The position numbers and the translations under genes are program-made. A stretch of 64,000 nucleotides of DNA from positions 832,001 to 896,000 of the forward strand of contig OY970067.1 of the NCBI GenBank assembly GCA_963705305.1, in the 5' to 3' direction. Each line of letters opens with the position of its first letter. The first letter of the stretch is position 1. The notes beneath the pieces are model-generated. The model had not been told where the DNA came from and searched no databases. It worked only from the letters and a program-made list of their open reading frames with translations. This stretch comes from an uncultured Methylomirabilota bacterium. Its GTDB lineage: Bacteria > Methylomirabilota > Methylomirabilia > Methylomirabilales > 2-02-FULL-66-22. This document shows positions 22,591-50,144 of this stretch, in pieces.

Positions 22591-22634
22591 CTGGCCTCCT
22601 CCATCGGGCGTCCCGGGGAGGTGTACTGGCCAGG

Positions 22635-22664: not shown

Positions 22665-22704
22665 GGTACAGAGCGACAAAGGATTGATCGAAGTATTGAT
22701 CTCG

Positions 22705-23004
22705 TCAGGTGGCGCTTTCAGGGTCGACGTTCTCGGTGGGCTTGGGTTCGGAGTCGGTGGCGGTCCTCGCACCGGAATTCGTCTTCCGCTCGACCGGGAC
22801 AGGCGCAGGGAGTGCCCGGGCTGCCAGTGCCTCAAACCGCGCCTCCTGCTCCTGGGCCAACGCCATCGTCCCGGCGATCTTCGCGTACACATCCACCGTC
22901 AACCCGATGGTGCTGTGGCCCGCCCGTTCCTGGGTGAGCTTGGGGTGGGTGCCCGCTTCGACATGGATACTGAAGCTCCGGTTAAAATCATGCTGCCGGA
23001 CCCC
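22705..23004 (-). pseudogene. C-terminal remnant of a tyrosine integrase, paralog of 25173-26702
   Basis: Translates GVRQHDFNRSFSIHVEAGTHPKLTQERAGHSTIGLTVDVYAKIAGTMALAQEQEARF, closely matching the C-terminus of the intact integrase. Confidence 0.9.
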
Positions 23005-23255
23005 CTATAACTGGCCTGCCCTCCGAACATTGGTCCAGTGGTAAAGTGGTGCTGTCAGAGCCTAAGCAAGGCGCAACGCGACTGCCTGTCTAGTGGCAGG
23101 ATCGAGAATATTATGCAGCATGTCCCTGAATTGGGTTCGCGTTAACCCAATTTTCAGATTCCCGTTGAGGCCCTCTACGTCATGAACGCGATTTTTGGCG
23201 CCAACCAAATATGCTCTGTCGGCTCTGCAACGAGCTATTCTTGATCAATCAAGAT

Positions 23256-24305: not shown

Positions 24306-24317
24306 CGAAATCCCCCA

Positions 24318-24941
24318 TCAGTAGTACCAATCTGCCTTGACCGCCACAGGGGGGCAATACTGCTTTGTTTGCAGCATGCTGAGGACTTTTGCTTTCGCAT
24401 TGGTATTTAGCACGCCAATCCCTTGTACCCATTGCCAAGGGAAAAACTTATATACCAAGAATTCGGCTTGCTTTCGACGTTTGCGATCAATGTCGCCAGG
24501 ACGATCATGCCAGCTATTACTCTTGATTACATTCCAGTCCACATGGTTCAAATCCTCTACTTTCTCAAAAAAGTCTGTCATAGCTTGAACGGCGTGACCG
24601 TCAGTAAAGCACCACGCATCGGTTTGCTTGGCCACAGTCTCGACAGAAGAGGTCAGATGAATGACCTGTTCCTGCCCGCCAATGTATCCTTCTACGTAGC
24701 CAGTGTGAATTGCATAGAGCATGGGGCAGCGATTGGTGAAGTAGAAGGGAACGTAATCTGCCACCACCCCTCCCGGCGCGACCGGCACTTGCTTCTTCGC
24801 TCTCCTCTCTTTGATATGCGAATGGGCAATGCAGACGGGAGAGTTCCCTGCCGCCGCCATGATAGAATCGCATGCCAAGCCACCTGCTTTCAAGATGCTC
24901 GGCAGATTCTCTACATGAGTGATGTGGTAGATGGGCGGCAT
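24318..24941 (-). CDS. darT: DarT ssDNA ADP-ribosyltransferase toxin (DUF4433)
   Basis: IYHITHVENLPSIL, YVPFYF..PMLY, FTDGHA, RRKQAEFLV (catalytic Glu). Confidence 0.93.
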   Translation of the reverse strand: MPPIYHITHVENLPSILKAGGLACDSIMAAAGNSPVCIAHSHIKERRAKKQVPVAPGGVVADYVPFYFTNRCPMLYAIHTGYVEGYIGGQEQVIHLTSSVETVAKQTDAWCFTDGHAVQAMTDFFEKVEDLNHVDWNVIKSNSWHDRPGDIDRKRRKQAEFLVYKFFPWQWVQGIGVLNTNAKAKVLSMLQTKQYCPPVAVKADWYY

Positions 24942-25086
24942 AGCCGACCGCAGAGCTGAAAAACATCAGACATCGGAATGAGACTCGTCGGCAGCAAGTC
25001 GCTGCCATACAACCGGAACGATCGGGGGAGCCCCGTGCATTCATAGAGGCAGAGCGTCTCCTGTTTGGGGCAGTTCCGTATCTGTG

Positions 25087-25116
25087 ATGTTACCCCAGAC
25101 AGGTTAGATGTGTCAA
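25087..25116 (-). promoter_or_regulatory. Putative sigma70 promoter of darTG
   Basis: TTGACA-18 bp-TAACAT. Confidence 0.5.
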
Positions 25117-25128
25117 GCATCCTTTGAG

Positions 25129-25141
25129 AATCAATGTCTTA
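25129..25141 (+). promoter_or_regulatory. IHF consensus-like site
   Basis: AATCAATGTCTTA matches WATCARNNNNTTR, about 30 bp beyond the integrase stop. Confidence 0.4.
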
Positions 25142-25172
25142 CCTCTGTTCTTGTCTCTCGTTACAGCACTTT

Positions 25173-26702
25173 TTAACGATCGGCATCCTTGGTGAGTTCG
25201 GCGTCGGGCCCTGCGGCGGTGTTCGTGCGGGAATTCGTCCCCGGCTTGGCCGGGACAAACGCTGGGAGCGCCCTGGCTGCCAGCGCGTCTAATCGCGCCT
25301 CCTGCTCTTGCGCCAACGCCATCGTCCCGGCGATCTTCGCGTATACATCCATCGTCAGCCTGATGCTGCTATGGCCCACACGCTCCTGCACGAGCTTGGG
25401 GTGGGTGCCTGCTTCCACATGGAAGGCGATGAAGCTTCGCCGAAAGTCATGCTGGCGGATCCCAGTGATCCCCAGCGCCCGCAACGCCGGGGCGAAGTGC
25501 CGGCGGCGGATGTTCTTTGGGTACAATGGAGTGCCTGTCTGGCTGGGGAACACCAGGTCAAGCGGGTTGGGTCCACGCAGATCTTCGAGGTGCGCGACCA
25601 GGAACGGGACCAAGGGGCCCCGGATCTCCACCACGCGTCTGCCGGCCCGCGACTTGGGCTCCGCGAGCTTCCAGCGCGGCTCCCCCGGCGGGCAGTCCTT
25701 CTTCGAACGCCAGATGACCTGCCGTTGGATGAAGACGCGGCATCGCTCGAGGTCGAGGTCTGCCCGCTGCAGTCCCGTGACCTCCCCGATCCGCAACCCG
25801 CAGAATGCCATCACGAGGAAGAGCACGCCGTAAAATGACCCGACCGCCTCGCAGCACTGCTTCAGCTGGTCGACACCGAGGTAGTGCAACTCTCGCTCGG
25901 GGACGTCAAAACGTCGGACCCGTTCCAGCGGGTTCACGAAGAGGTACCCCTTGGCCCGGGCATCCTCTAGGATCGTGTGCAGCACCCCCCGGACGATCTG
26001 CACGCTTCGGCGTCCCGGCTTGCCCCGGGACAGGAGGTCCGCCTGCCACCGCTCGATGCGGTCCGGCTTGAGGCTCTGGATGGGCGTCCGATTGAACGCG
26101 GGGATCAGGTAGCCGTTCACGGCCCACTCGTGCAAGGCGTGCGTGCTCGGGCTGACGGTCGGCTGGGTGCGCGCCAGCCAATCCGTCGCGTAGGGCTTGA
26201 ACGGCTTCGGGCGCGGGTCCACGTAGGTCCCCTGCCGGAGCTCCGTGCTCACGGTATCGCGGAACGCCTTCGCCTCCCGCTTGGTGGCGAAGTATTTCCA
26301 GCGCTGCTTCTTGGATTCTGGCTCGCGCCAAGCGACCCCGAACGGCTTGCGCCGGCCGGGGAACTTCCGGATGCTGGCGATGGTCGCTCTCCTTCCCGCG
26401 GCCGGCTGGATGGTCGGCCAGCGGGTGGGATGGTGGGGCCTCGGGGTGTTTGCTGGCGTTTGCCGGGCCCCGTGAAGCTGTTGGTATTGCGCCCCGATCG
26501 GGGTGTCCCCCTGCTGCGGGGGCAAGGGGTCCGCGGGCCGCCCATTCCCGCTGGCCCAGGATTGCAGCTCCGACAGTCGGAAGCGCCTGAACGGGCCAAT
26601 CTTGTACGAAGGCACCTTGTTCAGACGAACCATCTCGTACAACCAACTCCCCTTCACGCCCAGGTGGGCAGCCGCCTCTCGGATCGCAACGAATGGTTCC
26701 AC
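25173..26702 (-). CDS. Phage-type tyrosine integrase with in-frame N-terminal excisionase-like HTH
   Basis: IREAAAHLGV..WLYEMVR..VPSYKIG..RFRLSEL; arm-binding and SAM-like regions; GLRIGE, EPKSRAG, HDFRRS, ERVGHSS..TMDVY catalytic motifs. Confidence 0.9.
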   Translation of the reverse strand: MEPFVAIREAAAHLGVKGSWLYEMVRLNKVPSYKIGPFRRFRLSELQSWASGNGRPADPLPPQQGDTPIGAQYQQLHGARQTPANTPRPHHPTRWPTIQPAAGRRATIASIRKFPGRRKPFGVAWREPESKKQRWKYFATKREAKAFRDTVSTELRQGTYVDPRPKPFKPYATDWLARTQPTVSPSTHALHEWAVNGYLIPAFNRTPIQSLKPDRIERWQADLLSRGKPGRRSVQIVRGVLHTILEDARAKGYLFVNPLERVRRFDVPERELHYLGVDQLKQCCEAVGSFYGVLFLVMAFCGLRIGEVTGLQRADLDLERCRVFIQRQVIWRSKKDCPPGEPRWKLAEPKSRAGRRVVEIRGPLVPFLVAHLEDLRGPNPLDLVFPSQTGTPLYPKNIRRRHFAPALRALGITGIRQHDFRRSFIAFHVEAGTHPKLVQERVGHSSIRLTMDVYAKIAGTMALAQEQEARLDALAARALPAFVPAKPGTNSRTNTAAGPDAELTKDADR

Positions 26703-37754: not shown

Positions 37755-38028
37755 GGCCCGAGAGTGACCGTATGCCGGGCCGGGAGTGTTACCGGCCGAT
37801 CTGAGGGCGGGAGGCCGGGATGACCCGCGAGCCTGTCGGCGGCAACCCGGTCGCCGGAAGCACGCCTGCCCGCCTAATCCGCTGGTCGGCCTTCCGAACT
37901 GAATCCGCAGACGATCGACCGAGTCGGCGAGCCCCGCGGGCGTGCCTGGAGCCTGGACAGGTGGCGCTGAAGTCGGTCGGGGCGTGCAGGCAGAGGGTGA
38001 GGGAGGCGACCCGCACCCGGGCGCTGCG

Positions 38029-38862
38029 TCACTGCAAGAGCGTCTGGGGATCTCCGGCCAGCTCGACGTCGCCTTTGGCAGAGGCGAAGGCGTAGTGACT
38101 CAGGCTGGATCGGCGGAAGTCGCAGATCAGCTGCTCGAGCCGCCCAAGGTCATAGTGGGTGATGAATTCCTTGTACTTCCGATGGCGGAGGTAGGCCACT
38201 GCGAGGCGCAGCATCTCGTATCGCTCATACCGCAGCGTTGCCGTCAGCTGCGTCTTCCGATCACGGACGTAAGCCGACAGGCGGTCAAGGTCAATCCGAA
38301 TGCTGCTGAAGCCGAAGTCGATCCGTTTCCACAGCGAGCACATCTCCCCCGACTGGAGACTCTCCGGATACTGATGCACGACATTCTGGGAGACGCGCGC
38401 GTCGTCGGCGTCGGTCGTGTCGTACCCCAGGTCGACCCCGGCACTCGCGAAGTGCTCGACGAACGGGTTCCAGTCGCGGAGGATGACGGGGTCGTTCCCG
38501 CCGGGTTGCAGCCAGGAGAAACCGTCGCGTCCGAAGGCCCACTCGTACAGGTATGCCTCGCGCGGTTCCCGCTCGCCGCCACTGAATGAGCCCAGGACGC
38601 GGGGCACGTGGGCAAACACGTAGACCCCCGACCGGTAGAAAAAATCGTCCAGTTTCTTGGCGACGAGGTGGCGGATGAACATCTCGTGGCCGACGAACGG
38701 GGCTTGGTTGTACTCGATCCGGAGGGCGGAGGCCACGCCTTCCTGGGTCACGATGGTCCCCCCCAGTCCCGGAAACCGCGTCCGCAGCTCCATGATGATC
38801 CGCGCTTCGCTGCCGGCACCCGCCTCGCGAATGGGCTCGACGACTCCGTCTTGGAGGGTCAT
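38029..38862 (-). CDS. Hypothetical protein, possible divergent protein-kinase-like fold
   Basis: 277-aa ORF; HVPRVLG, YLYEW, QNVV, RIDFG segments. Confidence 0.55.
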   Translation of the reverse strand: MTLQDGVVEPIREAGAGSEARIIMELRTRFPGLGGTIVTQEGVASALRIEYNQAPFVGHEMFIRHLVAKKLDDFFYRSGVYVFAHVPRVLGSFSGGEREPREAYLYEWAFGRDGFSWLQPGGNDPVILRDWNPFVEHFASAGVDLGYDTTDADDARVSQNVVHQYPESLQSGEMCSLWKRIDFGFSSIRIDLDRLSAYVRDRKTQLTATLRYERYEMLRLAVAYLRHRKYKEFITHYDLGRLEQLICDFRRSSLSHYAFASAKGDVELAGDPQTLLQ

Positions 38863-38952
38863 CTGACGATCTCCTCTGCACCAGAGGGGACGTTGCCAAC
38901 TTCAGCACATTGCCCGTACCGACCGCACTGCACTTCCGCCGGCCCCCCCCTG

Positions 38953-39435
38953 TCAACCGCGCTTCCGGTGGGCCTCTCGGTGCGCCAGGCTTACCTTGAC
39001 CACGACCTTGTGCAAGTCGTGCGGGCCCTGATAATGGCACATGGGCAGGTGGGCTTCCTCGGGGAAGAACACCGCAAAATGGGCCGGATGAATGACCAGC
39101 CGCCGGTAATTCTCGGGCGCGGCGTAGAACACGATGTCCTTGGCCGCATCGTACGACGTCACGACCTGGAGGCCTTCGACCGGGGCCAGGCCGATGATCT
39201 CTTCCCCCGACACCAGGTACTGGATGTCGATGTAATCCCGGTGGGACTCGAACTGTCCCTCCTCGGGGGCGCGGGAGGGAGATCGCATGACCATGGCGTA
39301 CACGGCGTCGCCTAGGATCTGATGCTTGCCCGGCGGCAGACTGCCGAGAACGCTCTTCTCCAGAAACTCGAACCCGGCCTCCAGCCCCTCGATCCCCTGG
39401 AGGCCCCGCCACGCGTATATCGACCCCTGAATCAT
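38953..39435 (-). CDS. YhcH/YjgK/YiaL (NanQ-like) family protein
   Basis: FESHRDYIDIQY, FAVFFPEEAH.P, KVVVKV. Confidence 0.92.
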   Translation of the reverse strand: MIQGSIYAWRGLQGIEGLEAGFEFLEKSVLGSLPPGKHQILGDAVYAMVMRSPSRAPEEGQFESHRDYIDIQYLVSGEEIIGLAPVEGLQVVTSYDAAKDIVFYAAPENYRRLVIHPAHFAVFFPEEAHLPMCHYQGPHDLHKVVVKVSLAHREAHRKRG

Positions 39436-39470
39436 TCTCATCCTCCCGCGTCTGCAGACCCCCTGCACCC

Positions 39471-40616
39471 CTACACGTTAATCGGATATCCGCCGAGGTC
39501 CCGTGCCGCGTCGAACATGGCCACAATGTTCTCCGGCGGGACGTTGGCCTGGATGTTGTGCACCGAGCCGAAGACGAACCCGCCGCCGGGCGCCAGGTCG
39601 TGGATGCGGCGCTTGACGTCCTCCACCACCTGGGCAACCGTCCCCGTCCCCATGACGACCGGGTCGCAGCCGCCGCCCCAGAAGGTCAGGTCTTTGCCGA
39701 ACTCCCGCTTGAGCCGCGCCGAGTCCATCTCGGCCGCGTTGACCTGCACGGGGTTCAGGATGTCCAGCCCGACCTCGATGAGATCCGGAATCAGGCGGTA
39801 GATGGAGCCGCAGGAGTGGAGATACACGCGGGCCTTGGTCCGCTGCTTGATGGCCGCGACGAGCTGCCGGAGCCGGGGCTTGTAGATCTTCCGGAAGGTG
39901 GCGGGGGCCATCATCGGCCCGTGCTGGCTCCCCAGGTCCTCGTTGAGCTGGACCACGTCCACATAGGGCCCCACCCGGGCCAGGACCATGTCCCAGTAGG
40001 CGATCTGCCATTCCATGATCCGCTGGGTGAAGGCCTCCATGAGCGGCTGGCTGCCGGCCAGGTTCATGAACGCCTGCTCCAGCCCGAACATGTACCAGGA
40101 ATGCTCCCACAGTCCGGGCATGGCCCCGCACATCATGATGACCTTCTCGCCCGCCTCGAAGGCCGCCTTCACCTGTTCGGGGACGCCCGCGATGCGGGCC
40201 GGGTCGGTCGGATTCGGCCAGCGGTACTTCTCGAGGTCCGCCTCCGACTCGGCCTCGGGCAGCGGCACGGCCGCCATGTCGTAGTAGTAGCCGCCGGGAG
40301 GCATATGGTAGGTGGTGCCCCACTCGTCCACGTAGGAGTTGGTGGCGGGATCGATCCTGAAGACGTAGCCGCTGGGAGGCTTCGGGAAGAACGCCGCGCT
40401 GACCCGCTCGAAGCGCTGCAGGAGCTGCGGGTCGGGATCCACCAGGTAGGTGTGGTAGCTCCGGATGGCGGGCTCCGGCCCGCGGAGGCCGAGATGCTTC
40501 ATCAGCGCCTGGTGGGCGGCGAAATGGAGCGTCGTCTGACGGCCGCCGAAATCCAGGGGCACCCGGTCCGGCTCGTGATGGTCGAGGGCGGCCAGCGCCC
40601 GCTGCCGACAGTTCAT
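39471..40616 (-). CDS. Uroporphyrinogen decarboxylase / methylcobamide methyltransferase family protein
   Basis: HEPDRVPLD, EDLGSQ, HSCG, LNPVQ, GGGFVF..VHNIQ..VPPEN. Confidence 0.88.
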   Translation of the reverse strand: MNCRQRALAALDHHEPDRVPLDFGGRQTTLHFAAHQALMKHLGLRGPEPAIRSYHTYLVDPDPQLLQRFERVSAAFFPKPPSGYVFRIDPATNSYVDEWGTTYHMPPGGYYYDMAAVPLPEAESEADLEKYRWPNPTDPARIAGVPEQVKAAFEAGEKVIMMCGAMPGLWEHSWYMFGLEQAFMNLAGSQPLMEAFTQRIMEWQIAYWDMVLARVGPYVDVVQLNEDLGSQHGPMMAPATFRKIYKPRLRQLVAAIKQRTKARVYLHSCGSIYRLIPDLIEVGLDILNPVQVNAAEMDSARLKREFGKDLTFWGGGCDPVVMGTGTVAQVVEDVKRRIHDLAPGGGFVFGSVHNIQANVPPENIVAMFDAARDLGGYPINV

Positions 40617-40663
40617 CGTGGGTCCCCTCCCGGACGCGGCGGCGAGGGCCGGCACGCCGCCCG

Positions 40664-41410
40664 TCATCGCGTGAAGATCGCGCCCCGCACGTAGTCGGCG
40701 TCGGGCGAGGCCAGGAAGGCCAGGATGCGGGCCACGCCCATGGGATCGCCCGCCTCCCTGACGGCCTCGGCCCGGGCCTGCTCGAGGTCGCGGCCGGCGG
40801 CCCGCGCCCGGTCCACCAGGTTCTCGATGCGCATGGGGGTGGCGATGCTGCTCGGACAGACCTCGTTGACCCGGATGCCGTGGGGGGCGAGCTGCGCCTC
40901 CAGCGTCATGGCGAACCCATGCACGCCCCCCTTGCTGGCGCCATAGGCCAGAGACGAGCTGGGGATCTTGGTGCCGGCCTCCGAGGCAAAGAGCAGGACC
41001 ACGCCCTTTTTGGCCTTGCGGAGGTGCGGCAGCGCCGCCTTCACGGTCAAGAAGGCGCCCTTCAAATTCACGTCCAGGACGCTCTCGAAGGTGGCCTCCT
41101 CCAGCGCATCGGCCTGGAGCATGGCGCCCTTGAGGATCCCGGCGCAGCAGATCAGCACGTCCAGCCGGCCGCACCGCTCTACGGCCGCCGACGCCAGCCC
41201 TACGCAGTCCTCCTCGCGACGGACGTCGGTCCGCACAAAGGTCGCCTCGCCGCCGGCCGACCGGATCTCGGCCGCGACGGCCCGGCCCTCCGCCTCTAGC
41301 ATGTCGCCGAGGACGACCTTCCCTCCCTCGGCGACGACGGCTTTGGCGGTGGCCGCCCCGATCCCCCGCCCGCCGCCCGTGATGACCACCACGCGGCCTT
41401 CCAGGCGCAT
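40664..41410 (-). CDS. Short-chain dehydrogenase/reductase
   Basis: TGGGRGIG, YGASKG, IRVNEVCP. Confidence 0.92.
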   Translation of the reverse strand: MRLEGRVVVITGGGRGIGAATAKAVVAEGGKVVLGDMLEAEGRAVAAEIRSAGGEATFVRTDVRREEDCVGLASAAVERCGRLDVLICCAGILKGAMLQADALEEATFESVLDVNLKGAFLTVKAALPHLRKAKKGVVLLFASEAGTKIPSSSLAYGASKGGVHGFAMTLEAQLAPHGIRVNEVCPSSIATPMRIENLVDRARAAGRDLEQARAEAVREAGDPMGVARILAFLASPDADYVRGAIFTR

Positions 41411-41482
41411 GCGCGTCCTCCGATCTCCCTTCATTCCCTCGGCCGCGGGTTTCACAAGGTGCTGGGAAACTACCGTTCGACG

Positions 41483-41627
41483 AGGCCGCTCAAAAAGGCT
41501 CAGATGCAAGGCGCCGCGCCGGGTACCCATCCGTGAGGATGGGTGCAGGCGCGAGGCGTACTCCGCGCGTACGGCGCAGCGCCGCGGGAGCGCGGCAACG
41601 AAGCAGATGGGCCTTTTTCAGCAGCCT
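41483..41627. repeat. MITE-like element with imperfect terminal inverted repeats
   Basis: AGGCCGCTCAAAAAGGCTCAGATGC ... GCAGATGGGCCTTTTTCAGCAGCCT, 145 bp, internal hairpins, no ORF. Confidence 0.7.
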
Positions 41628-41628
41628 G

Positions 41629-42267
41629 TCAGGCGTCCACGGTCACCAGCGGCAGCATCCGCTGGAGGAGCGCTTCGGCCCGCACCGGGTTGTAGATCCC
41701 GCAGTGACAGGGCCGGGTCAGCTCCAGGCCCGCCTCTCGCACCGTCTTCTTCCCCCGCCTGATCTCGGCCAGCATCCGCTCGACCAGATTGGCCGGAACC
41801 ATGCCGTGCCCGCACATGGTGGTCAGCTGGAGGACCTCGTCCGCCGGCAGCTTCCTGTACTGGCCGAAGATGCCCAGGGAATTCTCCACCGTGTGCTTGG
41901 CGAGGCCGCTCTCGCGGCAGCCCTTCTCGGTCTCCTCGTGGATCCCCGTGACCACCACCGACATCCCCAGATCGGCCTCCTTCAGCTCCGCGAGGATCTT
42001 GACCACCTCCGCCTCGTCGGTGAAGACCCCATGGACGATGGAGGTGCTCTGGATGTTCCCGAGGATCTCTTCCCGGGACTTGACGTGACAGTTCCCCGTC
42101 ACCATGTCTCCGTAGTTGACCGGCCGGTGGCGCAACAGGATGCCCAGGAACTGCTTCATCCGCTCGGCCGAGCCCTCCTCATTGAGTCCCTTGGCCGACA
42201 TGGTGAAGACGATGTAGTCCTGGCTCAGGCTCTCCCGATCCCCCCGGCGGTGCAGTGTATGCGTCAC
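41629..42267 (-). CDS. Cys/His-rich hypothetical protein
   Basis: THTLHR, TMCGHGM, CHCGIYNP motifs; RBS AGGAG. Confidence 0.8.
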   Translation of the reverse strand: MTHTLHRRGDRESLSQDYIVFTMSAKGLNEEGSAERMKQFLGILLRHRPVNYGDMVTGNCHVKSREEILGNIQSTSIVHGVFTDEAEVVKILAELKEADLGMSVVVTGIHEETEKGCRESGLAKHTVENSLGIFGQYRKLPADEVLQLTTMCGHGMVPANLVERMLAEIRRGKKTVREAGLELTRPCHCGIYNPVRAEALLQRMLPLVTVDA

Positions 42268-42289
42268 CCCACTCCTCCTCGACCAGTCG

Positions 42290-43033
42290 TCAGACGGCGG
42301 CCAGCGGTCTCCCCAGGCCGACGTTGCTCTTCCCGTTAATGGAGAGGAAGCGGCCGCGCCCCTGGATTTCCCGCACGTAGGGAACGGAGCCGTCCTCGCC
42401 GACCCGGCTGATGATGTCCCCGGAGAACACGGTGTCGATCTCCTGCGAAACGCGGTCCAGGACTTCCAGGACCTCTGGCAGCCGCTCGATCGGGATCATG
42501 AACTCCACGATGGCGGACAGCACCTTCTCGTCGAGGACCTCGGGGTTGATCCGCCCCTGTGCCCGGTCCACCATGAGCTTCGTGACCGGATTGTTCTCCT
42601 CGAAACTGATCCCCAGCCTGGCCAGCGCCATGGCCACCTTCTCCACATCGCGGAACCGGGTCCCCACGCCGGGCCGGCCCAGCTCGCAGGCCATGCCGTA
42701 CTTCCCCCACCGGTACCGGCCGGTGACCTCGTTGGTCTTCATCTCTTCCGTGCCCCGGCCCGGGATACGGGTCTCGGGGTGAATCTTCAGCGGGTCGCTG
42801 AAGTTCTTCCGCACCGTCCTCGGCCAGACCAGCTCGGGCTGGTACAATGCCTCGGTGGGACAGCAGCCGCTCCGCAGGCAGACGCTGCACTCCACGCACT
42901 CGTCCTCGTCGATCACGTAGGTGATCCGGGTCGGGTTCTTGGGGTCCCGCTCGAAGTGCATGATCCCGCCCAGCATGGTGCAGTACGAGCGGCAGCTGCC
43001 GCACCCGATACACTTCTCAGGATCGATTCTCAC
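42290..43033 (-). CDS. 2x[4Fe-4S] ferredoxin-domain protein with uncharacterised C-terminal domain
   Basis: CIGCGSC...C and CVECSVC....CCP; PGRGTEEMKTNEVTGR; GTGA overlap with upstream stop. Confidence 0.85.
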   Translation of the reverse strand: MRIDPEKCIGCGSCRSYCTMLGGIMHFERDPKNPTRITYVIDEDECVECSVCLRSGCCPTEALYQPELVWPRTVRKNFSDPLKIHPETRIPGRGTEEMKTNEVTGRYRWGKYGMACELGRPGVGTRFRDVEKVAMALARLGISFEENNPVTKLMVDRAQGRINPEVLDEKVLSAIVEFMIPIERLPEVLEVLDRVSQEIDTVFSGDIISRVGEDGSVPYVREIQGRGRFLSINGKSNVGLGRPLAAV

Positions 43034-44328
43034 TGCCGCATCCCTCCCAGCTCCCTCGCCCGGCACGCGCCGCCCATCGCGTACAGTCGCGGCCGGAACG
43101 AGATCCCCCGCTCCACGTCCCGCGCCAGCACCCCGGCCGAGACCTCGGTGCGGTTCTTCACCAGGGCGGTCAGGACCCCCGCGCAGCGCACGTCGCCCAA
43201 CAGCAGGAAGCCGTCCAGGCGCCCGCCCGCGCAGATCAGCTTCCGGTAGAGCGGCCTGTCCTTGTCCATGGTCGTGAGCGCCTCTCCCCCCTCCCAGAGG
43301 CCGGCGGAGATCACCCGCACCCCCAGGATCTCCACCGAGTTCATGCGCAGCGCACCCGAGAACGTCGCCGGCACGCCGGCCATGTTCAGGCCTGCAATCC
43401 GGCCCCCCTCGGTGGCCGAGGGCCAGATGGCGCTGGGGAGATTCTTCCGCTGGAGGACTTCCAGCGGCTCGGCCACGTCCCCGGCGGCGAAGATCCCCGG
43501 GACGCTCGTGCTCATGTGGTCATCCACGATCACGCCCTGGCTCAGGATCACACCCGTGTCCCGCAGGCAGCCGACGTTTGGGTCCACCCCCTTGCCGATG
43601 ATGGCCAGCTCGCACGGAAGCTGGCTCCCGTCCGACAGCGAGACTCCCTCCAGTCGCTCCCGCCCATGAAACGCGGTGACGTCGCTGTGAAAGTGGACCC
43701 GGACCCCGTTCCGCTCGAACGCCCGCAGGAAGAAATCGGAAGCCGTCCGGTCCAGCATCTGGGACAGGATCCGGTCGGAGGAGATCACCAGATGGACCGC
43801 CTTCTTCCTGCCGACCATGGCCTCCAGGCTTTTCACCCCCACCAACCCGCCGCCCACGATCACCACCGGCCCGCGCGTTGTGCGCGCCGCCTTCTTGATC
43901 GCTTCGGCGTCCACGATCTTGCGGAGCGGGAAGACGCCCGCGAGCTCCTTGCCCGGCACCGCCAGCAGCCGGGAGGACGAGCCGGTGGCCACCAAGAGCC
44001 GATCGAAGGGCAGGCTCTTGCCGCGGCCCAGATGGACCTGCCGCCCGCGGGGATCCACCCCCTCGGCCGCGATACCCTGGAGCAGCCGGATGCGCTGCGC
44101 GGCGTAGAACCCTCGGGGAGCGAAGACGAGATCCTGCTTGGTCTTCTTCCCAGCGATGTAGAGGGGCAGCATAGCCCGGGAATAGCCGAAGAGCTTTTCG
44201 TCCGAGACGATGGCGATCTGCCCGTCGGGATCGTGCCGCCGGATCTCCTGGGCGGCCGCGGTCCCGGCCACGCTGTTCCCCAGGATGACGTATCGAACCG
44301 GCTGCCTCTGCCGTGTCGTCGGCTTCAT
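43030..44328 (-). CDS. FAD-dependent NAD(P) oxidoreductase (NirB/rubredoxin reductase-like, FNOR)
   Basis: ILGNSVAG, LLVATGS, VGGGLVG, TSVPGIFAAGD. Confidence 0.9.
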   Translation of the reverse strand: MKPTTRQRQPVRYVILGNSVAGTAAAQEIRRHDPDGQIAIVSDEKLFGYSRAMLPLYIAGKKTKQDLVFAPRGFYAAQRIRLLQGIAAEGVDPRGRQVHLGRGKSLPFDRLLVATGSSSRLLAVPGKELAGVFPLRKIVDAEAIKKAARTTRGPVVIVGGGLVGVKSLEAMVGRKKAVHLVISSDRILSQMLDRTASDFFLRAFERNGVRVHFHSDVTAFHGRERLEGVSLSDGSQLPCELAIIGKGVDPNVGCLRDTGVILSQGVIVDDHMSTSVPGIFAAGDVAEPLEVLQRKNLPSAIWPSATEGGRIAGLNMAGVPATFSGALRMNSVEILGVRVISAGLWEGGEALTTMDKDRPLYRKLICAGGRLDGFLLLGDVRCAGVLTALVKNRTEVSAGVLARDVERGISFRPRLYAMGGACRARELGGMRQ

Positions 44329-44376
44329 CTGGCTATCCATGCCTCGTCTCGTGCGCCGGAAATCTCTTGACGTTTC

Positions 44377-44482
44377 GTCACCCCGGCGAACGCCGGGGTC
44401 CAGGAATACGGTCTGACTGGATTCCGGCTTTCGCCGGAATGACGGAACGGCAGCTCTGGATGCCGGCGTTCGCCGGCATGAC
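44377..44482. repeat. Cluster of three 27-bp REP-like palindromes
   Basis: GTCAYYCCGGCGAAMGCCGGNRTCCAG-type units at 44377-44403 (+), 44417-44443 (-), 44456-44482 (-). Confidence 0.85.
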
Positions 44483-44519
44483 GCCCCCGCGCAACTGCGG
44501 AAGCGTTGGAGGCATCTGC

Positions 44520-46073
44520 CTAGCGGGCGCCTCCGGCCGCCAGCATGGCGGCCAGCTCCTCGGCCTGTTCCCGCGGCTCGGGCAGCACCGGCCCCGCCAA
44601 AAGCCTGCCCCCCGTGATCCGCTGCCATTCGGCCGGCAGGACCTCGGCGAGCCACGGGCTTCCCCAGAAGGGCAGCCGGACCCCGATCTGCACCGTGAGT
44701 CCCAGCGCGAACAGGCCGACCGCGCTGGCCCAGGTGGCGGCCCGCGAGAATTCCGGGAAGGCCGCGACCGCCGGGGTGCCGCCATTCCTCCGGGGCAGAC
44801 CGAGCAGCAATGTGACCACCTGGGGAAGCTGGAAGGCGGAGCCGAAGGCGACGATCGGCTGGAGCCCGTCCTTCCCGAGTTCTGCGGCAAAGGCGGCCAG
44901 CCGGCCGCCCGTCCGCTTGTCCAGCTCGGCGGCCAGCGCCTCGGCGTGGGCCCCCAGGTCTCCGCCCAGCAGGATCGGGGCCTTCGCCCCCACCGCCGCC
45001 TCCATCAGGGCCAGCGTGCGCTCGAAGAATGTTTGCTTGGCGTTGCTCTCTCCCATCAGGACCGCCACCCCGCGGATCCGGCCCGCCTCCAGCGCGCCCG
45101 CGAGTGCGTGCGCCGGCGGCAGGGCCAGGCTGCCGGCGCCGGCCTGGAGCCGACGCGACGTGGTCCCGTAGAAGGCGTTCTGGGCGTGATGGGCCGCCTG
45201 GTCGATCACCTGGGCGGCCGTCCGGTCGAAGGGCGCTCTCCCGTCCACCAGGAAGGCGGGCACCCCGTACTTCGCCGCCAGCATCTCCAGCCCAGGCCAG
45301 CCAGCGTTGGGGGCGAGGATCAGCGCGTCCACGTTCATCCCTAGCGCCAGCTCCGGCGAACCGTAGTCGGCAGCCGCCAGGGTGAATGGCAGCCGGCCGC
45401 CCCCCTGCATGAACAGGTTGACCTTCCGCCCCTCCGCCCGCAGTCCCGCCTGATCGAAGGCCCGGACGAGTCCCTCGGGGGCCTGCCCGACGATCAAAAG
45501 GTTGATCCCGCCCGGATCGAACGGCAGACCTGCCTCGCTGCGGGCGAGCCCCGCGGCCGCCTGGCACAGCAGGCCGTACTGGATCAGGCCCAGCCGGGCC
45601 AGGTCCTGGAGGGTCTGGACCAGGTAGCCCTTGTGCGAGAAAAAGCCGTTCTGCACCGAGAACAGGTCCGCCTTCCGGACCGGGAGGAGTCCCGCTTTGG
45701 TCAGGCCCTCCGCGGTCGCCGCGGGCAGGGCGGCGGCCAGATCCGGAAGCTCCTGGCCGGCCCCGGCGATTCCCAAAAGCTGCACGGCCCGGGCCGACTC
45801 CAGCACGCCTTCCAGGGTTGCCTGGAAGAGGGTCTCCATGACGATCTGGTCCCGGTCGGCCCCGCAGGTCCCCTGGCTCGGCTCGTCCCCGAAGGGATTG
45901 ATCCGGCACGGCCCCTGGAAGCACTTCCGGCAGCTCAGGCCGTTGCTGGTGAAGGCGCAGAGCGGCAATTGCCGCTCGTAGCGCTCCCAGGAGAGCTGCG
46001 CCCCGAGGTCGTGTGCCGCCAGCAAGAGGGGAGACGTGTCCGCCAGTGCGCTCTTCTTGTGAATTCGATCCAT
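44520..46073 (-). CDS. CooS/Ni-CODH-fold protein lacking C-cluster ligands
   Basis: QLPLCAF..GLSCRKCFQGPCRINPFG...GTCGAD N-terminus and GRIRGVAVLMG..N C-terminal pattern typical of CooS; metal-ligand positions substituted. Confidence 0.82.
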   Translation of the reverse strand: MDRIHKKSALADTSPLLLAAHDLGAQLSWERYERQLPLCAFTSNGLSCRKCFQGPCRINPFGDEPSQGTCGADRDQIVMETLFQATLEGVLESARAVQLLGIAGAGQELPDLAAALPAATAEGLTKAGLLPVRKADLFSVQNGFFSHKGYLVQTLQDLARLGLIQYGLLCQAAAGLARSEAGLPFDPGGINLLIVGQAPEGLVRAFDQAGLRAEGRKVNLFMQGGGRLPFTLAAADYGSPELALGMNVDALILAPNAGWPGLEMLAAKYGVPAFLVDGRAPFDRTAAQVIDQAAHHAQNAFYGTTSRRLQAGAGSLALPPAHALAGALEAGRIRGVAVLMGESNAKQTFFERTLALMEAAVGAKAPILLGGDLGAHAEALAAELDKRTGGRLAAFAAELGKDGLQPIVAFGSAFQLPQVVTLLLGLPRRNGGTPAVAAFPEFSRAATWASAVGLFALGLTVQIGVRLPFWGSPWLAEVLPAEWQRITGGRLLAGPVLPEPREQAEELAAMLAAGGAR

Positions 46074-46168
46074 CGCTCTCCAGCCCTTTCCCGAAAGGAT
46101 GTCCGGATCGTTACCCGTGGAGGAATACCGCGCGGTCGAGCCACCCATTCGCACTCCCTCGCGGGAGT

Positions 46169-46696
46169 CTATGATTTCGTCAGCCCCTTCGCCGCCGTGA
46201 AGTCCAGCCCTGTCAGCCTGGCCCCCTTGCGGACCGGCACCGCTCCCCGGGCGACCTCCTCCGGATCCAGGAACACCAGGGCGCCGGTGGGGCAGCTCTC
46301 GACGCAGAACGGCGCGCTCATCCCGGTGCACTGGTCGCACTTGAACATCTTCCGGAAGCTGCGAAAGGGCTGGGGTGCCCCGAATGGGCACACCATCACG
46401 CACATCCAGCAGCCGATGCACCGCTCGTCGTTGACCAGGACCAGCCCACCGTCCTCTCGGTACAGTGCCTTGGCAGGGCAGGCGTCCAGGCAGGGCGCGT
46501 CCTGACAATGGCGGCACTGCACGGGGAAGCCGTTCTCGGTGCCCGTATCCTCCACCCGCACCCTGGCCAGAGGGGCGGGGTTCTCGTAGATCGCTTCCGG
46601 CAGGCTCTTGCTCAACGAGCCCCGGTTCAGCGCGCAGGCGATTTCACAACTCTTGCACGCCACACACCGCTCTGCGTTCACGAAGATGGATTTCAT
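46169..46696 (-). CDS. 4x[4Fe-4S] electron-transfer protein (CooF/DmsB-like)
   Basis: CVACKSCEIAC, CRHCQDAPCLDACP, CIGCWMCVMVCP, KCDQC..PFCVESCP. Confidence 0.92.
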   Translation of the reverse strand: MKSIFVNAERCVACKSCEIACALNRGSLSKSLPEAIYENPAPLARVRVEDTGTENGFPVQCRHCQDAPCLDACPAKALYREDGGLVLVNDERCIGCWMCVMVCPFGAPQPFRSFRKMFKCDQCTGMSAPFCVESCPTGALVFLDPEEVARGAVPVRKGARLTGLDFTAAKGLTKS

Positions 46697-46788
46697 GGTC
46701 CTCCTCGAACCCGATTCCTCCGAAGGCATCCCCCGCCTCTTCCCGCCGCCGGACGGGGGGAAAGTTCTCGCCGCCGACCGCCGTCCCG

Positions 46789-47976
46789 TCAGAACCGCGA
46801 CTCTTGCACGTAGATGTCGATGGGCTCGGAATAGGTCAACGTCTCGCTGCGGGACAGGGTGCCCGAGGCGACGTCCAGGGCCGTCCGGTAGAGGCGTTCG
46901 CCGGCCGCCTCCGGGCTCTCGGAACCCTCGATCACCGTGCCCGAGTAGAAATCGATGCTGTCGCGGGCGGCCGCGTAGGTATGCGGGTTGGCCGTGGTCC
47001 AAAGGAAGGGCGCCACCACCGACGGGGAGCCTTCCAAGAGCGTCCGCCCGGCCACGCCGCCGCCGCCGAGCTGAAACAGGACCAGGTTGGCTCCCGCCGC
47101 GGCGTACCCGGCAAAGATGGAGAGATGGCCCATCCAGTTGTCCACGAAGTAGAGGCCCTTTCCACCCGGCCGCTCGGCGTACTTCAGCACGCCCCGGATC
47201 GGCGCCGTCCCCGCCTTGTGGATCGCCCCCAGGCTCTTCTCTTCCAAGGAGCTGAGCCCCCCTTTAATGTTGGAGGGCACCGGGTTCACGGTGCGGATGT
47301 CCAGGCCCGTGGCCTTGGCCAGCGCCTCCCGGCGGGCCGCCGCATCCAGGATGGCCTGGGCCACCTGCGGCGTGGCGGCGCGCCGCGCCAGCGCCTGCTC
47401 GGCCCCGATGATCTCGGTCGTCTCGCCGAACAGCGCCGTGCCGCCCGCGGCCACGACCTTGTCGTAGAGATAGCCCACGGCCGGGTTTCCGGCGATGCCC
47501 GAGGTGGTGTCGGAGTACCCGCACTTGACCCCCAGGCACAGATGCTCGTCCCCGACCGGCTCGCGCCGCAGCCTGGAGGCCTCGTACACCAGCGTCCGGG
47601 CCAACTGGATGCCCTTGACGATAGCCCCGTAGGTGCCCCCGTCCCTGGCTGGATCCACCACCTCCACCCGCTTCTTGGCGTCGGCGATCTCGTCGGCCAG
47701 CCGCTCCACCGCGAGCTCCGGGTAGCCCACGCCGGGGCTGGCGGCGTGCAGGATCACGGCGGCCACGTTGGGGTTCCTCCCCAAACCGATCAGCACGCGG
47801 GCGATCGTCTCCCGGTCACTGGCGGTGCGGCCGGAGCCGTGGTCGGCGGTGACGATCGTCTTGGTTCCGGCCACGAAATCGCAGATGGACTTGGAGATGA
47901 CCCCCTGCGGCAACACCAGGACGTAATTCCGGGTGCCGACGGATCCGTCGGACCGGACGTAACCCAGAAAGCTCAT
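46789..47976 (-). CDS. UxaA/GarD/SuyB family dehydratase, large subunit
   Basis: GYVRSDGSVGTRNY, NPNV, KCGYSD..SG..GNPAVG, ETTEIIGAE, GGLSSLEEKSLGA. Confidence 0.88.
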   Translation of the reverse strand: MSFLGYVRSDGSVGTRNYVLVLPQGVISKSICDFVAGTKTIVTADHGSGRTASDRETIARVLIGLGRNPNVAAVILHAASPGVGYPELAVERLADEIADAKKRVEVVDPARDGGTYGAIVKGIQLARTLVYEASRLRREPVGDEHLCLGVKCGYSDTTSGIAGNPAVGYLYDKVVAAGGTALFGETTEIIGAEQALARRAATPQVAQAILDAAARREALAKATGLDIRTVNPVPSNIKGGLSSLEEKSLGAIHKAGTAPIRGVLKYAERPGGKGLYFVDNWMGHLSIFAGYAAAGANLVLFQLGGGGVAGRTLLEGSPSVVAPFLWTTANPHTYAAARDSIDFYSGTVIEGSESPEAAGERLYRTALDVASGTLSRSETLTYSEPIDIYVQESRF

Positions 47977-48281
47977 CCCCTGCCGCTCCTTTCCAGGTCG
48001 CCGCGGGCGCGCATCCCTTCCAGGTTGTGGATGTGGACCAGCGCCCCCTGCGGGATGTGGACCCCTGCCCTGCCGATGGGCTCCCCGTACTTCCGGATGA
48101 CCGCGCCCCGGGCGATCTCCTCCAATGCGATCTTGAATCCGAACGGGATCAGCTCGCAGGCCTGGACCGTGAGTGAGCCCGGTCCTGCCGGCACCGCAAC
48201 CTCGTCTCCCGCCCGGATCTCCTCCATAGCCGTGGCCACGTTGTCGGAAGGATGCATGATCAGCGCGCGTTTCGCCGCCAT
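47973..48281 (-). CDS. SAF-domain small subunit (UxaA/SuyA-like)
   Basis: HPSDNVATA, IPFGFKIAL, KYGEPIG, VHIHNL. Confidence 0.9.
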   Translation of the reverse strand: MAAKRALIMHPSDNVATAMEEIRAGDEVAVPAGPGSLTVQACELIPFGFKIALEEIARGAVIRKYGEPIGRAGVHIPQGALVHIHNLEGMRARGDLERSGRG

Positions 48282-48529
48282 GGCTCCCCGTCCTCCTTCA
48301 CGAAGGCTGTCACAACAATCCGTCCGCCGCCAACCCGCAGAGAGTCTATCCGTCGCGGCGGCCCTCTCCTCCACCCCGAGCGCCGGGTCGCCGGCGAGAA
48401 TGGGCATGCCCTCTGACACGGCCGAGGCCGCGGCGTCCGCACACCGCTCCAGCATGCCTCGTGGCGCGGAGGCTTGTCAACGAGAAGGCCGGGAAGGTGT
48501 GGAAAAGAGGTCGAAATCGAGCCAACCGC

Positions 48530-49174
48530 TCACTTGGCGCGGTAGCCGACCAGGCCCGCCTCCAGGGCGCGCCGGTCCACCCGGCTGAGGCTCTTTTCCA
48601 TGGCGGCGGTCAAGATGCGCGTGTGCGGGATATCCACCAGATAATCCGGGATGAACCAGAGATCGTCCTCGCTGGTCATCCAGCCCGGATGTATCCCGTC
48701 GAAGCGGCCGAGATTGACCGGGCGGGAATAGGCGCGCAGGGTCCGGTCGCCCCGCAGGTTGATGTAGTCCTCGAAGTAGCTCATCGCCAGCTCGCGCAGG
48801 CTCCGGTAGACCGGGGCGCGGAAACGCAGGCCCGAGAAGTTCGACTTGGCAATGGCGCCCCAGTGGCCGTTCCGGCGGTAGACGGCGATGACGTGATCCG
48901 TGTCCTGCACCGCCTCCAGATCCAGCAAGAGCGGCGGGTAGCCCAGGGCGCGCAGCGCGGCGGCGGCAAAGATGGCCCCCTCCAGGCAGTGGGCCGTCCC
49001 CGCGCGAAGCACCCGCCGCGGCGACCATGCCGTCTTGGCCAGGTGGTAGGGCATGGCGTCCAGCATCCGCTGGATCCCCACCGGCGAGCGCAGGGCCTGC
49101 AGCCGCCGGAGCTCCCGCCGGGTAAACCCACCCGCTTGCACCAGCCTGGGGGACGTTGCGACTTTATTGACCAT
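48530..49174 (-). CDS. Hypothetical protein with transglutaminase/papain-like Cys-His motifs
   Basis: AHCLEGA, DTDHVIA, WGAIAKSN. Confidence 0.7.
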   Translation of the reverse strand: MVNKVATSPRLVQAGGFTRRELRRLQALRSPVGIQRMLDAMPYHLAKTAWSPRRVLRAGTAHCLEGAIFAAAALRALGYPPLLLDLEAVQDTDHVIAVYRRNGHWGAIAKSNFSGLRFRAPVYRSLRELAMSYFEDYINLRGDRTLRAYSRPVNLGRFDGIHPGWMTSEDDLWFIPDYLVDIPHTRILTAAMEKSLSRVDRRALEAGLVGYRAK

Positions 49175-50144
49175 ATTCCTTCCCAGGTCCGCACCCCTCA
49201 CGATCATTTACTCCCCCTGGGGGGATCGAGGCCGGGGCTGTCTTGGACGGCAGCAGCACGGTGGAAAGAGAGGCCACCACCAGGAGCAGCGCCACGAAGT
49301 CGGACCAGTGGGGCGTCTCGCCCAGGAGCAGCATGCCGCTGAACACCCCCACCACGGGGACCATCATGACCGCGAGGCTGGAGACGCCCACGGGGGCCAC
49401 CAGAGCGATCTTCATCCAGGCCCAATAACAGAAGATGAAGGCCACGAAGACGTTGTAGAGGATGCCCAGCAGCGGCCAGACCGACAGCGCAAAGGGGCTG
49501 AAGCTGCCCGGCTCCAGAAAGAGGGCGGCGGCGAGGATGGGGACGACGGCGACGGCCATCTGCCAGGCCGTGAAGGAGGTCACCGGCAGATGGACGGGCC
49601 AGCGCTTCATGATGACGGTCCCCAGGGCCCAGGAGACTGCACCCCCGATGACGAAGAGCGCCCCCAGCGGCGCCTCGCCGAAGGCGGCGAGCTCGTTCGC
49701 CAGGAGGAGCAGCATGCCCGAGAAGCCGAGGACGACCCCGACCACTCGCCGCCGGGTGAAGGGCTCGCCGAGAAGCCAGGCGGAGAGCATGACGCCCCAC
49801 ACCGGCATGGTGTAGCCCAAGATCGCGGCCCGTCCGGACGCCATCAGGCGGACGCCGTAGATCACTAGCACGTTCCAGCCCATCATGTTGACCAGCCCGA
49901 TGAGGATCATCCGCGGCCACTGGCCCTCCGGCACCTGGAGGCGGTGGCCGTCGATCCGGGCGATGGCGAACAGGCCCAGGGCGCCGAAGAGGAGGCACGC
50001 CGTCCGGAAGTGCATGGGCCCCATCTCCGACAGGACCACCTTCATCACCGGCCAGTTGAACCCCCAGCCGAGAGTCAGACCCACCAGCAAGCCGAGAAGG
50101 TGGCCGGGAAACGTGTGGGCGGAGGCCTGATCGTTCTTTTCCAA
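49164..50144 (-). CDS. DMT/EamA family transporter
   Basis: WGFNWPVMK, about 10 hydrophobic helices, LLGEP/LLGET. Confidence 0.88.
   Translation of the reverse strand: MEKNDQASAHTFPGHLLGLLVGLTLGWGFNWPVMKVVLSEMGPMHFRTACLLFGALGLFAIARIDGHRLQVPEGQWPRMILIGLVNMMGWNVLVIYGVRLMASGRAAILGYTMPVWGVMLSAWLLGEPFTRRRVVGVVLGFSGMLLLLANELAAFGEAPLGALFVIGGAVSWALGTVIMKRWPVHLPVTSFTAWQMAVAVVPILAAALFLEPGSFSPFALSVWPLLGILYNVFVAFIFCYWAWMKIALVAPVGVSSLAVMMVPVVGVFSGMLLLGETPHWSDFVALLLVVASLSTVLLPSKTAPASIPPGGVNDREGCGPGKEYGQ

Follow-up and report, generated by a model that had tools for sequence, protein, structure and literature searches.

A CooS-like protein without C-cluster ligands in a conserved five-gene cassette of an uncultured Methylomirabilota bacterium

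Introduction

The window analysed here, a stretch of 64,000 nucleotides from the genome of an uncultured Methylomirabilota bacterium, carries on the minus strand a gene (44520..46073) for a CooS-like protein of 517 amino acids (aa). The protein has the fold of CooS and keeps Cys39 and the B-cluster cysteines Cys48, Cys51, Cys56 and Cys70, and all ligands of the C-cluster are lost. Its gene is under purifying selection and belongs to a conserved cassette, ordered CooF - CooS-like - FNOR - 247-aa - 212-aa, with all five genes on the minus strand; no second cooS is present in the genome. It is proposed, with a probability of about one half, that the CooS scaffold is kept as a non-catalytic Fe-S relay or structural subunit in an NAD(P)H-linked oxidoreductase serving the pair of 247-aa and 212-aa proteins (247/212 pair). 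A relay or scaffold role had been suggested in an earlier note made from the letters of the window, and it remains the best reading.

Loss of the C-cluster ligands

Residues of canonical CooS are numbered after the CO dehydrogenase (CODH) II orthologue of Carboxydothermus islandicus (L073), which was checked to reproduce Cys39, 47, 48, 51, 56, 70, His93, His261, Cys295, 333, 446, 476, 526 and Lys563. Pairings were taken from a profile-profile alignment (hhalign) of the family set with 11 canonical CooS sequences; it extends over the full length (519 columns, 23% identity), with probability 100 and an E-value of 6.9e-51. In the query, the D-cluster site is incomplete, with one cysteine of two (Cys39 is kept and Cys47 is Ser47). 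The B-cluster cysteines Cys48, 51, 56 and 70 are all kept, and the N-terminal spacing, Cx2Cx4Cx13C, is of the CooS B-cluster type. His93 and His96 fall inside a seven-residue deletion. His261 is replaced by Gln197 (GHNP to GQAP), Cys294/Cys295 by Gly224/Gly225 (GICCTG to MQGGG), Cys333 by Ala257 (DYQC to APNA), Cys446 by Glu342 (GCNN to GESN), Cys476 by Asp372 (TGCG to GGDL), Cys526 by Ala413 (GSC to GSA), and Lys563 by Ala446 (HEK to RAA). None of the six C-cluster ligands (His261, Cys295, 333, 446, 476 and 526) is present, and the acid-base residues His93 and Lys563 are both gone. MAFFT alignments of 83 and 93 sequences yield the same pairings as hhalign, and those of the C-terminal part are identical when phmmer aligns the query with CODH-II from PDB.

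The earlier note had described the four B-cluster cysteines as kept, the second D-cluster cysteine as serine, and each C-cluster motif and the HEK region as substituted. Alignment with CODH-II bears this out at every C-cluster position, the register of the DxQC motif being off by at most one residue. Because the C-cluster ligands and both acid-base residues are absent, Ni,Fe-dependent CO oxidation by the CooS-like protein is very unlikely, as had been expected from ligand loss in the sequence.

The reading frame at 44520-46073 (minus strand) is open throughout and translates into 517 aa. Its N-terminus, MDRIHKKS, agrees with 22 of 23 aligned homologues, which supports the start at ATG 46073, and a Shine-Dalgarno-like GGAGAG precedes it. 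Two other starts were set aside on the N-termini of the homologues: a 665-aa reading from GTG 46517, which runs through cooF in another frame, and ATG 46147, although a good Shine-Dalgarno site is found there too. The Pfam Prismane/CO dehydrogenase match is confined to residues 47-93 (46.5 bits), and the NCBIfam CooS equivalog TIGR01702 reaches 83.3 bits against a cut-off of 478, its best stretch comprising residues 20-89 only. At E <= 0.01 this CooS model was the sole NCBIfam match, and none of the hybrid-cluster protein (HCP) family models matched. With phmmer, the top PDB match is Carboxydothermus hydrogenoformans CODH-II (E 3e-25), aligned over residues 14-89 and 320-507. A structure was predicted with AlphaFold2 from 24 family sequences, with a mean predicted local distance difference test score (pLDDT) of 77.2 and a predicted template modelling score (pTM) of 0.81. 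All matches listed by Foldseek for this model against PDB are Ni-CODH, CODH/ACS or CooS-V (best E 2e-17, template modelling score 0.67). The profile alignment and the CODH-type relatives of the predicted structure agree in indicating a CooS fold, which the first reading of this uninterrupted frame had assumed.

Conservation and selection in the family

A word-indexed search, in which 8000 candidates were scored, gave 206 proteins at E <= 0.001; of these, the best 120 are 46-68% identical to the query and mostly 490-530 aa long. An exhaustive search of representatives gave 420 clusters at E <= 0.001, of which 161 reach 1e-10 and 15 reach 1e-30. The family pattern was counted over 121 sequences, namely the query and the best 120 homologues. 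Cys39 and the four B-cluster cysteines are present in 118 of these, the other three being cut at the N-terminus, and position 47 is Asn (86), Ser (30) or Val (2), never Cys. At the position of Cys446, Glu was found in all 121 sequences, and at that of His261, Gln in 106. The position of Cys476 is acidic in 99 (Asp 53, Glu 46), with Gly in 15, other residues in seven and Cys in none. Cys333 is replaced by Ala (103), Gly (10), Ser (7) or Thr (1), without any Cys, and Cys295 by Gly, Ala, Ser or Thr, again with Cys in 0/121. The position of Cys526 is variable (Cys in 5/121), and that of Lys563 is Ser in 97 sequences, Ala in 19 and Lys in none. Family members have mostly five to eight cysteines in total, five of them at the N-terminus.

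Cysteines shifted along the chain were sought within four alignment columns on either side of the lost sites, and Cys was found there in 0 to 5 of the 121 members; the numbers are higher around His261, where 19 members have Cys or His, and around Cys526, with 20. None of the ligands is displaced by this count, a possibility which the earlier note had named as one that would overturn its reading. Bulky residues, Phe442 (109/121) and Trp448 (119/121), occupy the positions of Ala559 and Val565, and PDB titles label CODH variants at Ala559 as tunnel redesigns. These residues therefore suggest that the old C-cluster cavity may be filled.

At 72 positions, 97% or more of the 121 sequences agree, and reading frames are intact in the family members examined. 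The ratio of nonsynonymous to synonymous substitution rates (dN/dS, Nei-Gojobori method) of the CooS-like gene is 0.085 in the sole unsaturated pair (L009/L010), 0.19 in L014/L016, and 0.19-0.40 in five more distant pairs in which dS is near saturation. For the four neighbour genes, in six pairs with orthologous neighbours, the values are 0.03-0.40, mostly 0.05-0.2; in the comparison of the window with L002, those of the 247-aa and 212-aa genes are higher (0.52 and 0.61), because the L002 pair is a divergent copy. The substitution pattern indicates purifying selection on the CooS-like gene and, together with the conservation among the 121 sequences, agrees with the earlier view of an intact, retained gene. 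Neutral dN/dS and a want of ligand-less homologues had been named as marks of simple decay; the values of 0.085-0.40 and the ligand-less family found here are the opposite of both.

Short forms with partial or complete ligand sets

A tree of 93 sequences and 506 columns (FastTree, LG+gamma) was midpoint-rooted, with no HCP outgroup, and its deep branching order is unresolved. The query family forms, together with P0123/P0124, L015/P0128 and L014/L016/L017/P0130, one clade of 31 tips with a Shimodaira-Hasegawa-like support of 0.98. Every member is without C-cluster cysteines, and the four members that come from loci all carry the cassette. In these, L014-L017, which make up sister clades, Gly or Asp rather than Glu is found at former ligand positions. 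A second group comprises 16 short forms (support 0.87) which keep Cys333, 446, 476 and 526, except for P0227 and P0256, where they are altered. L067 and its kin also retain His261, one Cys at 294/295, and Lys563; L030 and L044 have a form with four to five of the cysteines, from which His261 and Lys563 are lost. These three loci of the 16-tip group also have the window's two extra genes. The direction of change is read as loss and not gain, because ligands are the rule in canonical forms.

Among P0142-P0262, at least two more short CooS-like clades (about 410-550 aa) were seen that keep the B-cluster cysteines and have Asp39, Ser or Thr at position 47 and no C-cluster Cys. The two clades, of 16 and 11 tips (support 1.0 and 0.97), have S-D and G-N-E at 446/476/526.

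The five-gene cassette

The first gene of the cassette (46169..46696, minus strand) encodes a CooF-like poly-[4Fe-4S] ferredoxin of about 175 aa, which starts with MKSIFVN and matches Pfam Fer4_11 (1.4e-17). The CooS-like gene is followed by that of FNOR (43030..44340, minus strand, start at ATG 44340), an FAD/NAD(P)-dependent oxidoreductase of the pyridine-nucleotide-disulfide type with 436 aa; it matches Pfam Pyr_redox_2 (2.4e-50), and its best NCBIfam match is PadH, at 247 bits and under the cut-off of 475. Then come the genes of the 247-aa protein (42290..43033, minus strand), with an N-terminal 2x[4Fe-4S] ferredoxin domain and a C-terminal domain, and of the 212-aa protein (41629..42267, minus strand), which belongs to no known family. 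The stop codon of FNOR and the GTG with which the 247-aa gene starts share the four letters GTGA, and the 212-aa gene begins 22 nucleotides (nt) after the 247-aa gene, behind a GAGGAGGAG site. The cooF-cooS-FNOR order given in the earlier note was thus recovered with Pfam and NCBIfam; the extent of the unit has to be widened, from three genes to five with the 247-aa and 212-aa genes.

The cassette was surveyed by tblastn with the window's neighbours in 80 loci from a scan of one genome per species. Both extra genes are found in 18 loci (L002-L010, L012-L017, L030, L044 and L067), all of them with short CooS forms. The gene order of the window is kept in L003-L010, L012-L017 and L067, and FNOR is last in the cassette in L030 and L044. 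L002 has a divergent 247/212 pair upstream, its contig ending at the CooS-like gene, before FNOR, and L011 breaks off inside the CooS-like gene. In none of the 61 remaining loci were the two extra genes found; the CooS of these loci, sampled in a few cases as canonical and not typed one by one, aligned with the query chiefly over the conserved N-terminal part. The cooF - cooS-type - FNOR order is conserved in 16 related loci, and CooF, 40-78% identical, adjoins CooS in most related loci.

The 18 loci, all from metagenome-assembled genomes, are assigned by their record titles to Methylomirabilota, Syntrophaceae/Syntrophus, Thermodesulfobacteriota, 'delta proteobacterium', Acidobacteriota, Baltobacteraceae, Proteobacteria, Chloroflexota, Clostridia and Acetobacteraceae. 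Synteny, which the earlier note had proposed to check, is conserved across phyla. The 247-aa and 212-aa proteins are 57-87% identical in the loci with the window's order and 38-57% identical in L002, L030, L044 and L067; the CooS-like protein is only 26-67% identical across the same loci. By these identities, the two proteins without assigned function are the best-conserved members of the cassette, more so than the CooS-like protein.

The genes around the cassette vary. In the window, a UxaA-type dehydratase split in two genes lies directly upstream (46789..48260, minus strand), and an SDR gene (40664-41416) and a gene for a URO-D/MtaA-like protein (39471-40580) lie downstream on the same strand, outside the conserved cassette. 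SDR flanks the cassette also in L006, and UxaA adjoins it only in L005 and L006, as in the window. Elsewhere, the flanks include TRAP DctP/Q genes (L009, L013), a GntP permease gene together with those of glycerate kinase and LrgAB (L044), and AFOR with PCC-domain genes (L003); RACo stands directly after the 212-aa gene in L004, L007 and L012. The UxaA pair of the window consists of a SAF-domain gene (47973-48260) and a catalytic gene (46789-47976) with a 4-nt overlap, and three more such split pairs are present in the genome. The URO-D/MtaA-like gene has 11 further paralogues in the genome, one of them 86% identical (C1:5099518-5100621), and in L019 a URO-D-like gene adjoins cooF-cooS. Taken together, these paralogues, the RACo genes of L004, L007 and L012 and the URO-D-like gene of L019 hint at some connection with corrinoid-dependent methyl transfer.

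The CooS-like gene and FNOR are separated by a spacer of 179 nt (44341..44519) with hairpin repeats resembling repetitive extragenic palindromic (REP) elements. It contains two REP-like units of about 27 nt (44417-44443 and 44456-44482) and a third related arm (44376-44403); the outer two arms form a 28-nt inverted repeat, 86% complementary. About 24 copies of the unit are present in the genome at up to 4 mismatches. A scan of 38000-49500 for terminators and promoters gave counts no different from those of shuffled sequences. No RNA run containing the sequence was listed, and one DNA run contained 0.24 of the words sampled from it.

The 247-aa and 212-aa proteins

Eight invariant cysteines lie in the two ferredoxin motifs of the 247-aa protein, which also has a conserved C-terminal domain of about 170 aa from an unknown family. 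This domain contains PGRGTEExKTNxVTGR, ELGRPG and NVGLGRP, and GRGTxExKTN, ExGRPG, NP, LSAIxE and KxNxGLG are invariant in it. The protein has 6185 matches, some of which may be generic ferredoxins, and the records name it 'ferredoxin'. The C-terminal domain found nothing below E 0.7 in PDB, and in the ESM Atlas unnamed or Fer4 clusters only.

For the 212-aa protein, 1490 homologues were found at E <= 0.001, the named ones being all 'hypothetical', and no Pfam domain was detected in the 120 homologues listed. In 19 sequences, down to 42% identity, Thr2, Leu5, His6, Arg7, Gly9, His125, Cys152, Gly153, His154, Cys187, Cys189, Gly190, Asn193 and Arg196 are invariant; the three cysteines and three histidines among them look like a metal site. 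The predicted structure (pLDDT 84.7) combines a ferredoxin-like N-terminal domain with a helical C-terminal part. Searches of Pfam, NCBIfam and PDB by sequence or profile gave no match for this protein, and the ESM Atlas unnamed clusters only. With the model, Foldseek found no specific PDB relative (best E 0.1), and the best result of the wide VIA-align comparison (Z 6.0) covers only the generic ferredoxin-like N-terminal domain.

The 247/212 pair is present three times in the genome, the CooS-like gene once. The two extra pairs (C1:5316231-5317765, L082, and C1:4944514-4946012, L083) are 38-51% identical to that of the window and have no CooS-like, CooF or FNOR gene alongside. They adjoin TRAP DctPQM and cyclase genes in one case and ABC transporter genes with a xylose-isomerase-like TIM-barrel gene in the other. 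The CooS-like/CooF/FNOR part is thus optional for the pair. In L017 (Acidobacteriota), a second divergent 247/212 pair (13218-14720), adjoining a GntR/FCD regulator, is encoded 2 kb away from the cassette on the other strand.

The only CooS-type gene of the genome

The genome of the window is a single contig of 5.65 Mb, 98.9% complete with 6.5% contamination. A search of its six frames with Pfam PF03063 led to one place, the CooS-like gene, and tblastn with 12 CooS-type proteins, canonical and short, found this locus only, with no second cooS or hcp gene in either search. The search for a canonical cooS, which the earlier note had recommended, thus came back empty, and the idea raised there that the protein may be an inactive heterodimer partner, paired with an active CooS, fails, since the near-complete genome holds a single Prismane-family gene. 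No CooC-like gene was found at E <= 1e-5 by tblastn with three open reading frames from the canonical loci L054, L066 and L068; this is weak evidence, as the queries are unverified and were chosen by a Walker-A motif. The CooS-like gene is carried by five of 20 genomes of the same genus and is missing from all 40 genomes that represent six further families of the order; the cassette is accessory in this lineage.

At lower coordinates of the window, the stretch 11300-26700 has a low GC content (0.56-0.62, against 0.66-0.74 around it). Its genes include two of integrase type (25173-26702 and 21661-22647), a Macro-domain gene (23256-24305), a DUF5677 gene (19903-20841) and several open reading frames without a Pfam match, and it is probably an integrated mobile island.

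Comparison with known CooS-type proteins

With canonical CooS (CODH-II, 1su6; Rhodospirillum rubrum, 1jqk; Desulfovibrio vulgaris, 6b6v), the query shares the fold over its full length and the B-cluster motif Cx2Cx4Cx13C. It differs in being about 120 residues shorter and in having none of the six C-cluster ligands, neither His93 nor Lys563, and one D-cluster Cys. Its cooF-cooS-FNOR order is shared with FNOR-type clusters described in the accessible part of PMC8776680. Mini-CooS (clade G, Thermosinus carboxydivorans) resembles the 517-aa query in short length and in its cooF neighbour. However, according to passages of Techtmann 2012 (PMC3328121), mini-CooS, short and beside cooF, keeps all 11 cysteines and the histidine, whereas the query family has five Cys and no C-cluster ligand. 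The term mini-CooS-like, applied here to L067, refers to length and ligand pattern only, without the T. carboxydivorans sequence.

CooS-V (clade D, C. hydrogenoformans; 7b7q), one of the structural matches of the query, also has a CODH scaffold. In the portions available of PMC13240472 and bioRxiv 10.1101/2025.09.14.676152, it is described as not interconverting CO and CO2. In CooS-V a single ligand is altered (Cys295 to Glu), and an Fe-S-O hybrid cluster is still bound; in the query family all ligands are lost, so that it could, from its sequence, hardly hold any cluster at the C-site. With HCP (Prismane, PF03063), the query shares the Pfam family and a distant common fold, but its best matches in sequence and structure are CooS, and its N-terminal Cys spacing is CooS-type. 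In the accessible text of PMC13240472, B-cluster cysteines are strictly conserved and single-Cys (type IV) and Cys-free (type V) D-sites are named; the D-site of the query, with Cys39 only, resembles type IV.

Three CODH surveys, in the parts available, drop sequences of this kind. Inoue 2019 excluded proteins under 550 aa and those with deletions in cluster or catalytic residues; Inoue 2022 (PMC8776680), in which mini-CooS is clade G, removed sequences whose cluster residues were deleted or mutated; the 2026 marine survey (PMC13240472) retained only sequences with all five C-cluster Cys; and clades G and H were left out of bioRxiv 10.1101/2025.09.14.676152. In the full-text literature, without subscription journals and supplements, no account was found of a CooS family lacking the C-cluster or of the cassette.

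Proposed role and alternative explanations

In the proposed mechanism, the CooS-like protein would be a pseudo-enzyme derived from CooS, without the Ni,Fe C-cluster and with the greater part of the D-cluster site gone, which still binds a B-type [4Fe-4S] cluster. The five cassette proteins, expressed from one operon, would form an NAD(P)H-linked oxidoreductase, in which electrons exchanged with NAD(P)(H) at FNOR would pass through the CooF clusters and then the CooS-like protein's B-cluster to the 247/212 pair. This pair would carry the chemistry, and the substrate would probably be an imported organic acid, a weak inference drawn because genes of organic-acid uptake and conversion dominate the flanks of the cassette. 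Here, the cluster content, the physical complex, the direction of electron flow and the identity of the catalytic subunit are what we infer. Prediction of a complex of the 247-aa and 212-aa proteins with the CooS-like protein as the scored partner gave 0.69, 0.66 and 0.70, and 0.52 in a control with chain 1 replaced, which weighs neither way. A bolder form of the proposal is that the cassette is an undescribed NAD(P)H-linked metalloenzyme with the 247/212 pair as its catalytic heart, in which CooS was turned stepwise into a wire or scaffold, with L067, then L030/L044, then the query clade as intermediates; this is offered tentatively, as possible rather than probable.

Several observations weigh against the relay or structural role. 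With a single D-cluster Cys, electrons may lack the route by which they usually leave the B-cluster at the surface towards CooF. The two B-clusters of the CODH-II dimer are too far apart for a wire alone. Invariant Glu342 and near-invariant Gln197 hint at a specific pocket role, for which a pure relay gives no reason. No gene of the cassette evolves faster than the CooS-like one, at two to three times the rate of its neighbours; this would fit a scaffold, but a weakening role too. Residues 1-69, with the cluster motif inside, are modelled at pLDDT < 50. The 247/212 pair, occurring twice in the genome without a CooS-like gene, does not need that protein, and L067 has the same cassette with a ligand-complete, mini-CooS-like protein, so that the ancestral cassette may have needed C-cluster chemistry. 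Mutual binding of the five proteins is itself a proposal from gene order and sequence.

An alternative that keeps catalysis in the protein is that the C-cluster pocket was rebuilt as a Cys-free site of Glu342, Gln197 and Asp/Glu372, either a mononuclear or dinuclear metal site with carboxylate/amide ligands or a substrate pocket, fed by the B-cluster and catalysing another reaction. Glu at Cys446 in 121/121, Gln at His261 in 106/121 and acidic residues at Cys476 in 99/121 sequences amount to conservation beyond the needs of a relay, and CooS-V demonstrates that a CODH scaffold can host a different cluster (7b7q, from its title; PMC13240472, in the text available). Nevertheless, the remaining positions that once held ligands have small residues (225 is Gly/Ala/Ser/Thr, 257 is Ala) or vary freely (413), small residues beside the site have given way to bulky Phe442 and Trp448, L014-L017 have Gly or Asp instead of Glu in the same cassette, and the cassette neighbours evolve more slowly than the CooS-like gene. 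We regard a rebuilt site as unlikely. Slightly more doubtful is a role confined to structure or regulation, such as that of an assembly platform or a B-cluster redox sensor, outside steady-state electron transfer. It would agree with the incomplete D-cluster site, the fast evolution, the patchy distribution (5/20 genomes of the genus, 0/40 from other families of the order) and the 247/212 pairs found elsewhere in the genome without the gene; it leaves unaccounted for why Cys39 and the B-cluster cysteines are kept in every full-length member (118/121) and why the gene always lies between the electron-transfer genes for CooF and FNOR.

That the protein still converts CO/CO2 or acts as an HCP, its ligands being misaligned, is highly improbable. 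Such activity is suggested by the JGI names of some homologues and by the Pfam Prismane match, but the phmmer, MAFFT and hhalign alignments agree independently, most members have five to eight Cys in all with five of them N-terminal, TIGR01702 scores 83 of the required 478 bits over residues 20-89 only, no HCP model matches at E <= 0.01, and the Cx2Cx4Cx13C spacing is that of the CooS B-cluster. Least credible of all is a functionless, decaying cooS relic, for which the loss of all catalytic residues and a dN/dS above that of the neighbours could speak and which the intact frames, the 72 positions conserved at 97% or more in 121 sequences, the dN/dS of 0.085 in the sole unsaturated pair and the synteny across phyla contradict.

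Implications

The consequences concern annotation in the first place. Several homologues are named 'hydroxylamine reductase (hybrid-cluster protein)' in JGI records, and one 'anaerobic carbon-monoxide dehydrogenase catalytic subunit', despite having no catalytic ligand, and carboxydotrophy concluded from such matches would be wrong. If the bolder form of the proposal is true, part of the metagenomic 'cooS' and 'hcp' calls would be unrelated to CO. Since CODH surveys, as far as their accessible texts go, drop such sequences by design, a family of at least hundreds of members from several phyla has stayed undescribed, to the extent that our searches show.

For enzyme evolution, one cassette that occurs with ligand-complete, partly depleted and ligand-less CooS provides a testable case of transition from a catalytic to a non-catalytic protein. 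It would, if that bolder form holds, represent a natural series in which the site of a complex Ni,Fe cluster was lost while the protein was kept. The 247-aa and 212-aa families, abundant and highly conserved with no assigned function, are probably partners in the low-potential electron transfer of uncultured anaerobes and of Methylomirabilota-like bacteria.

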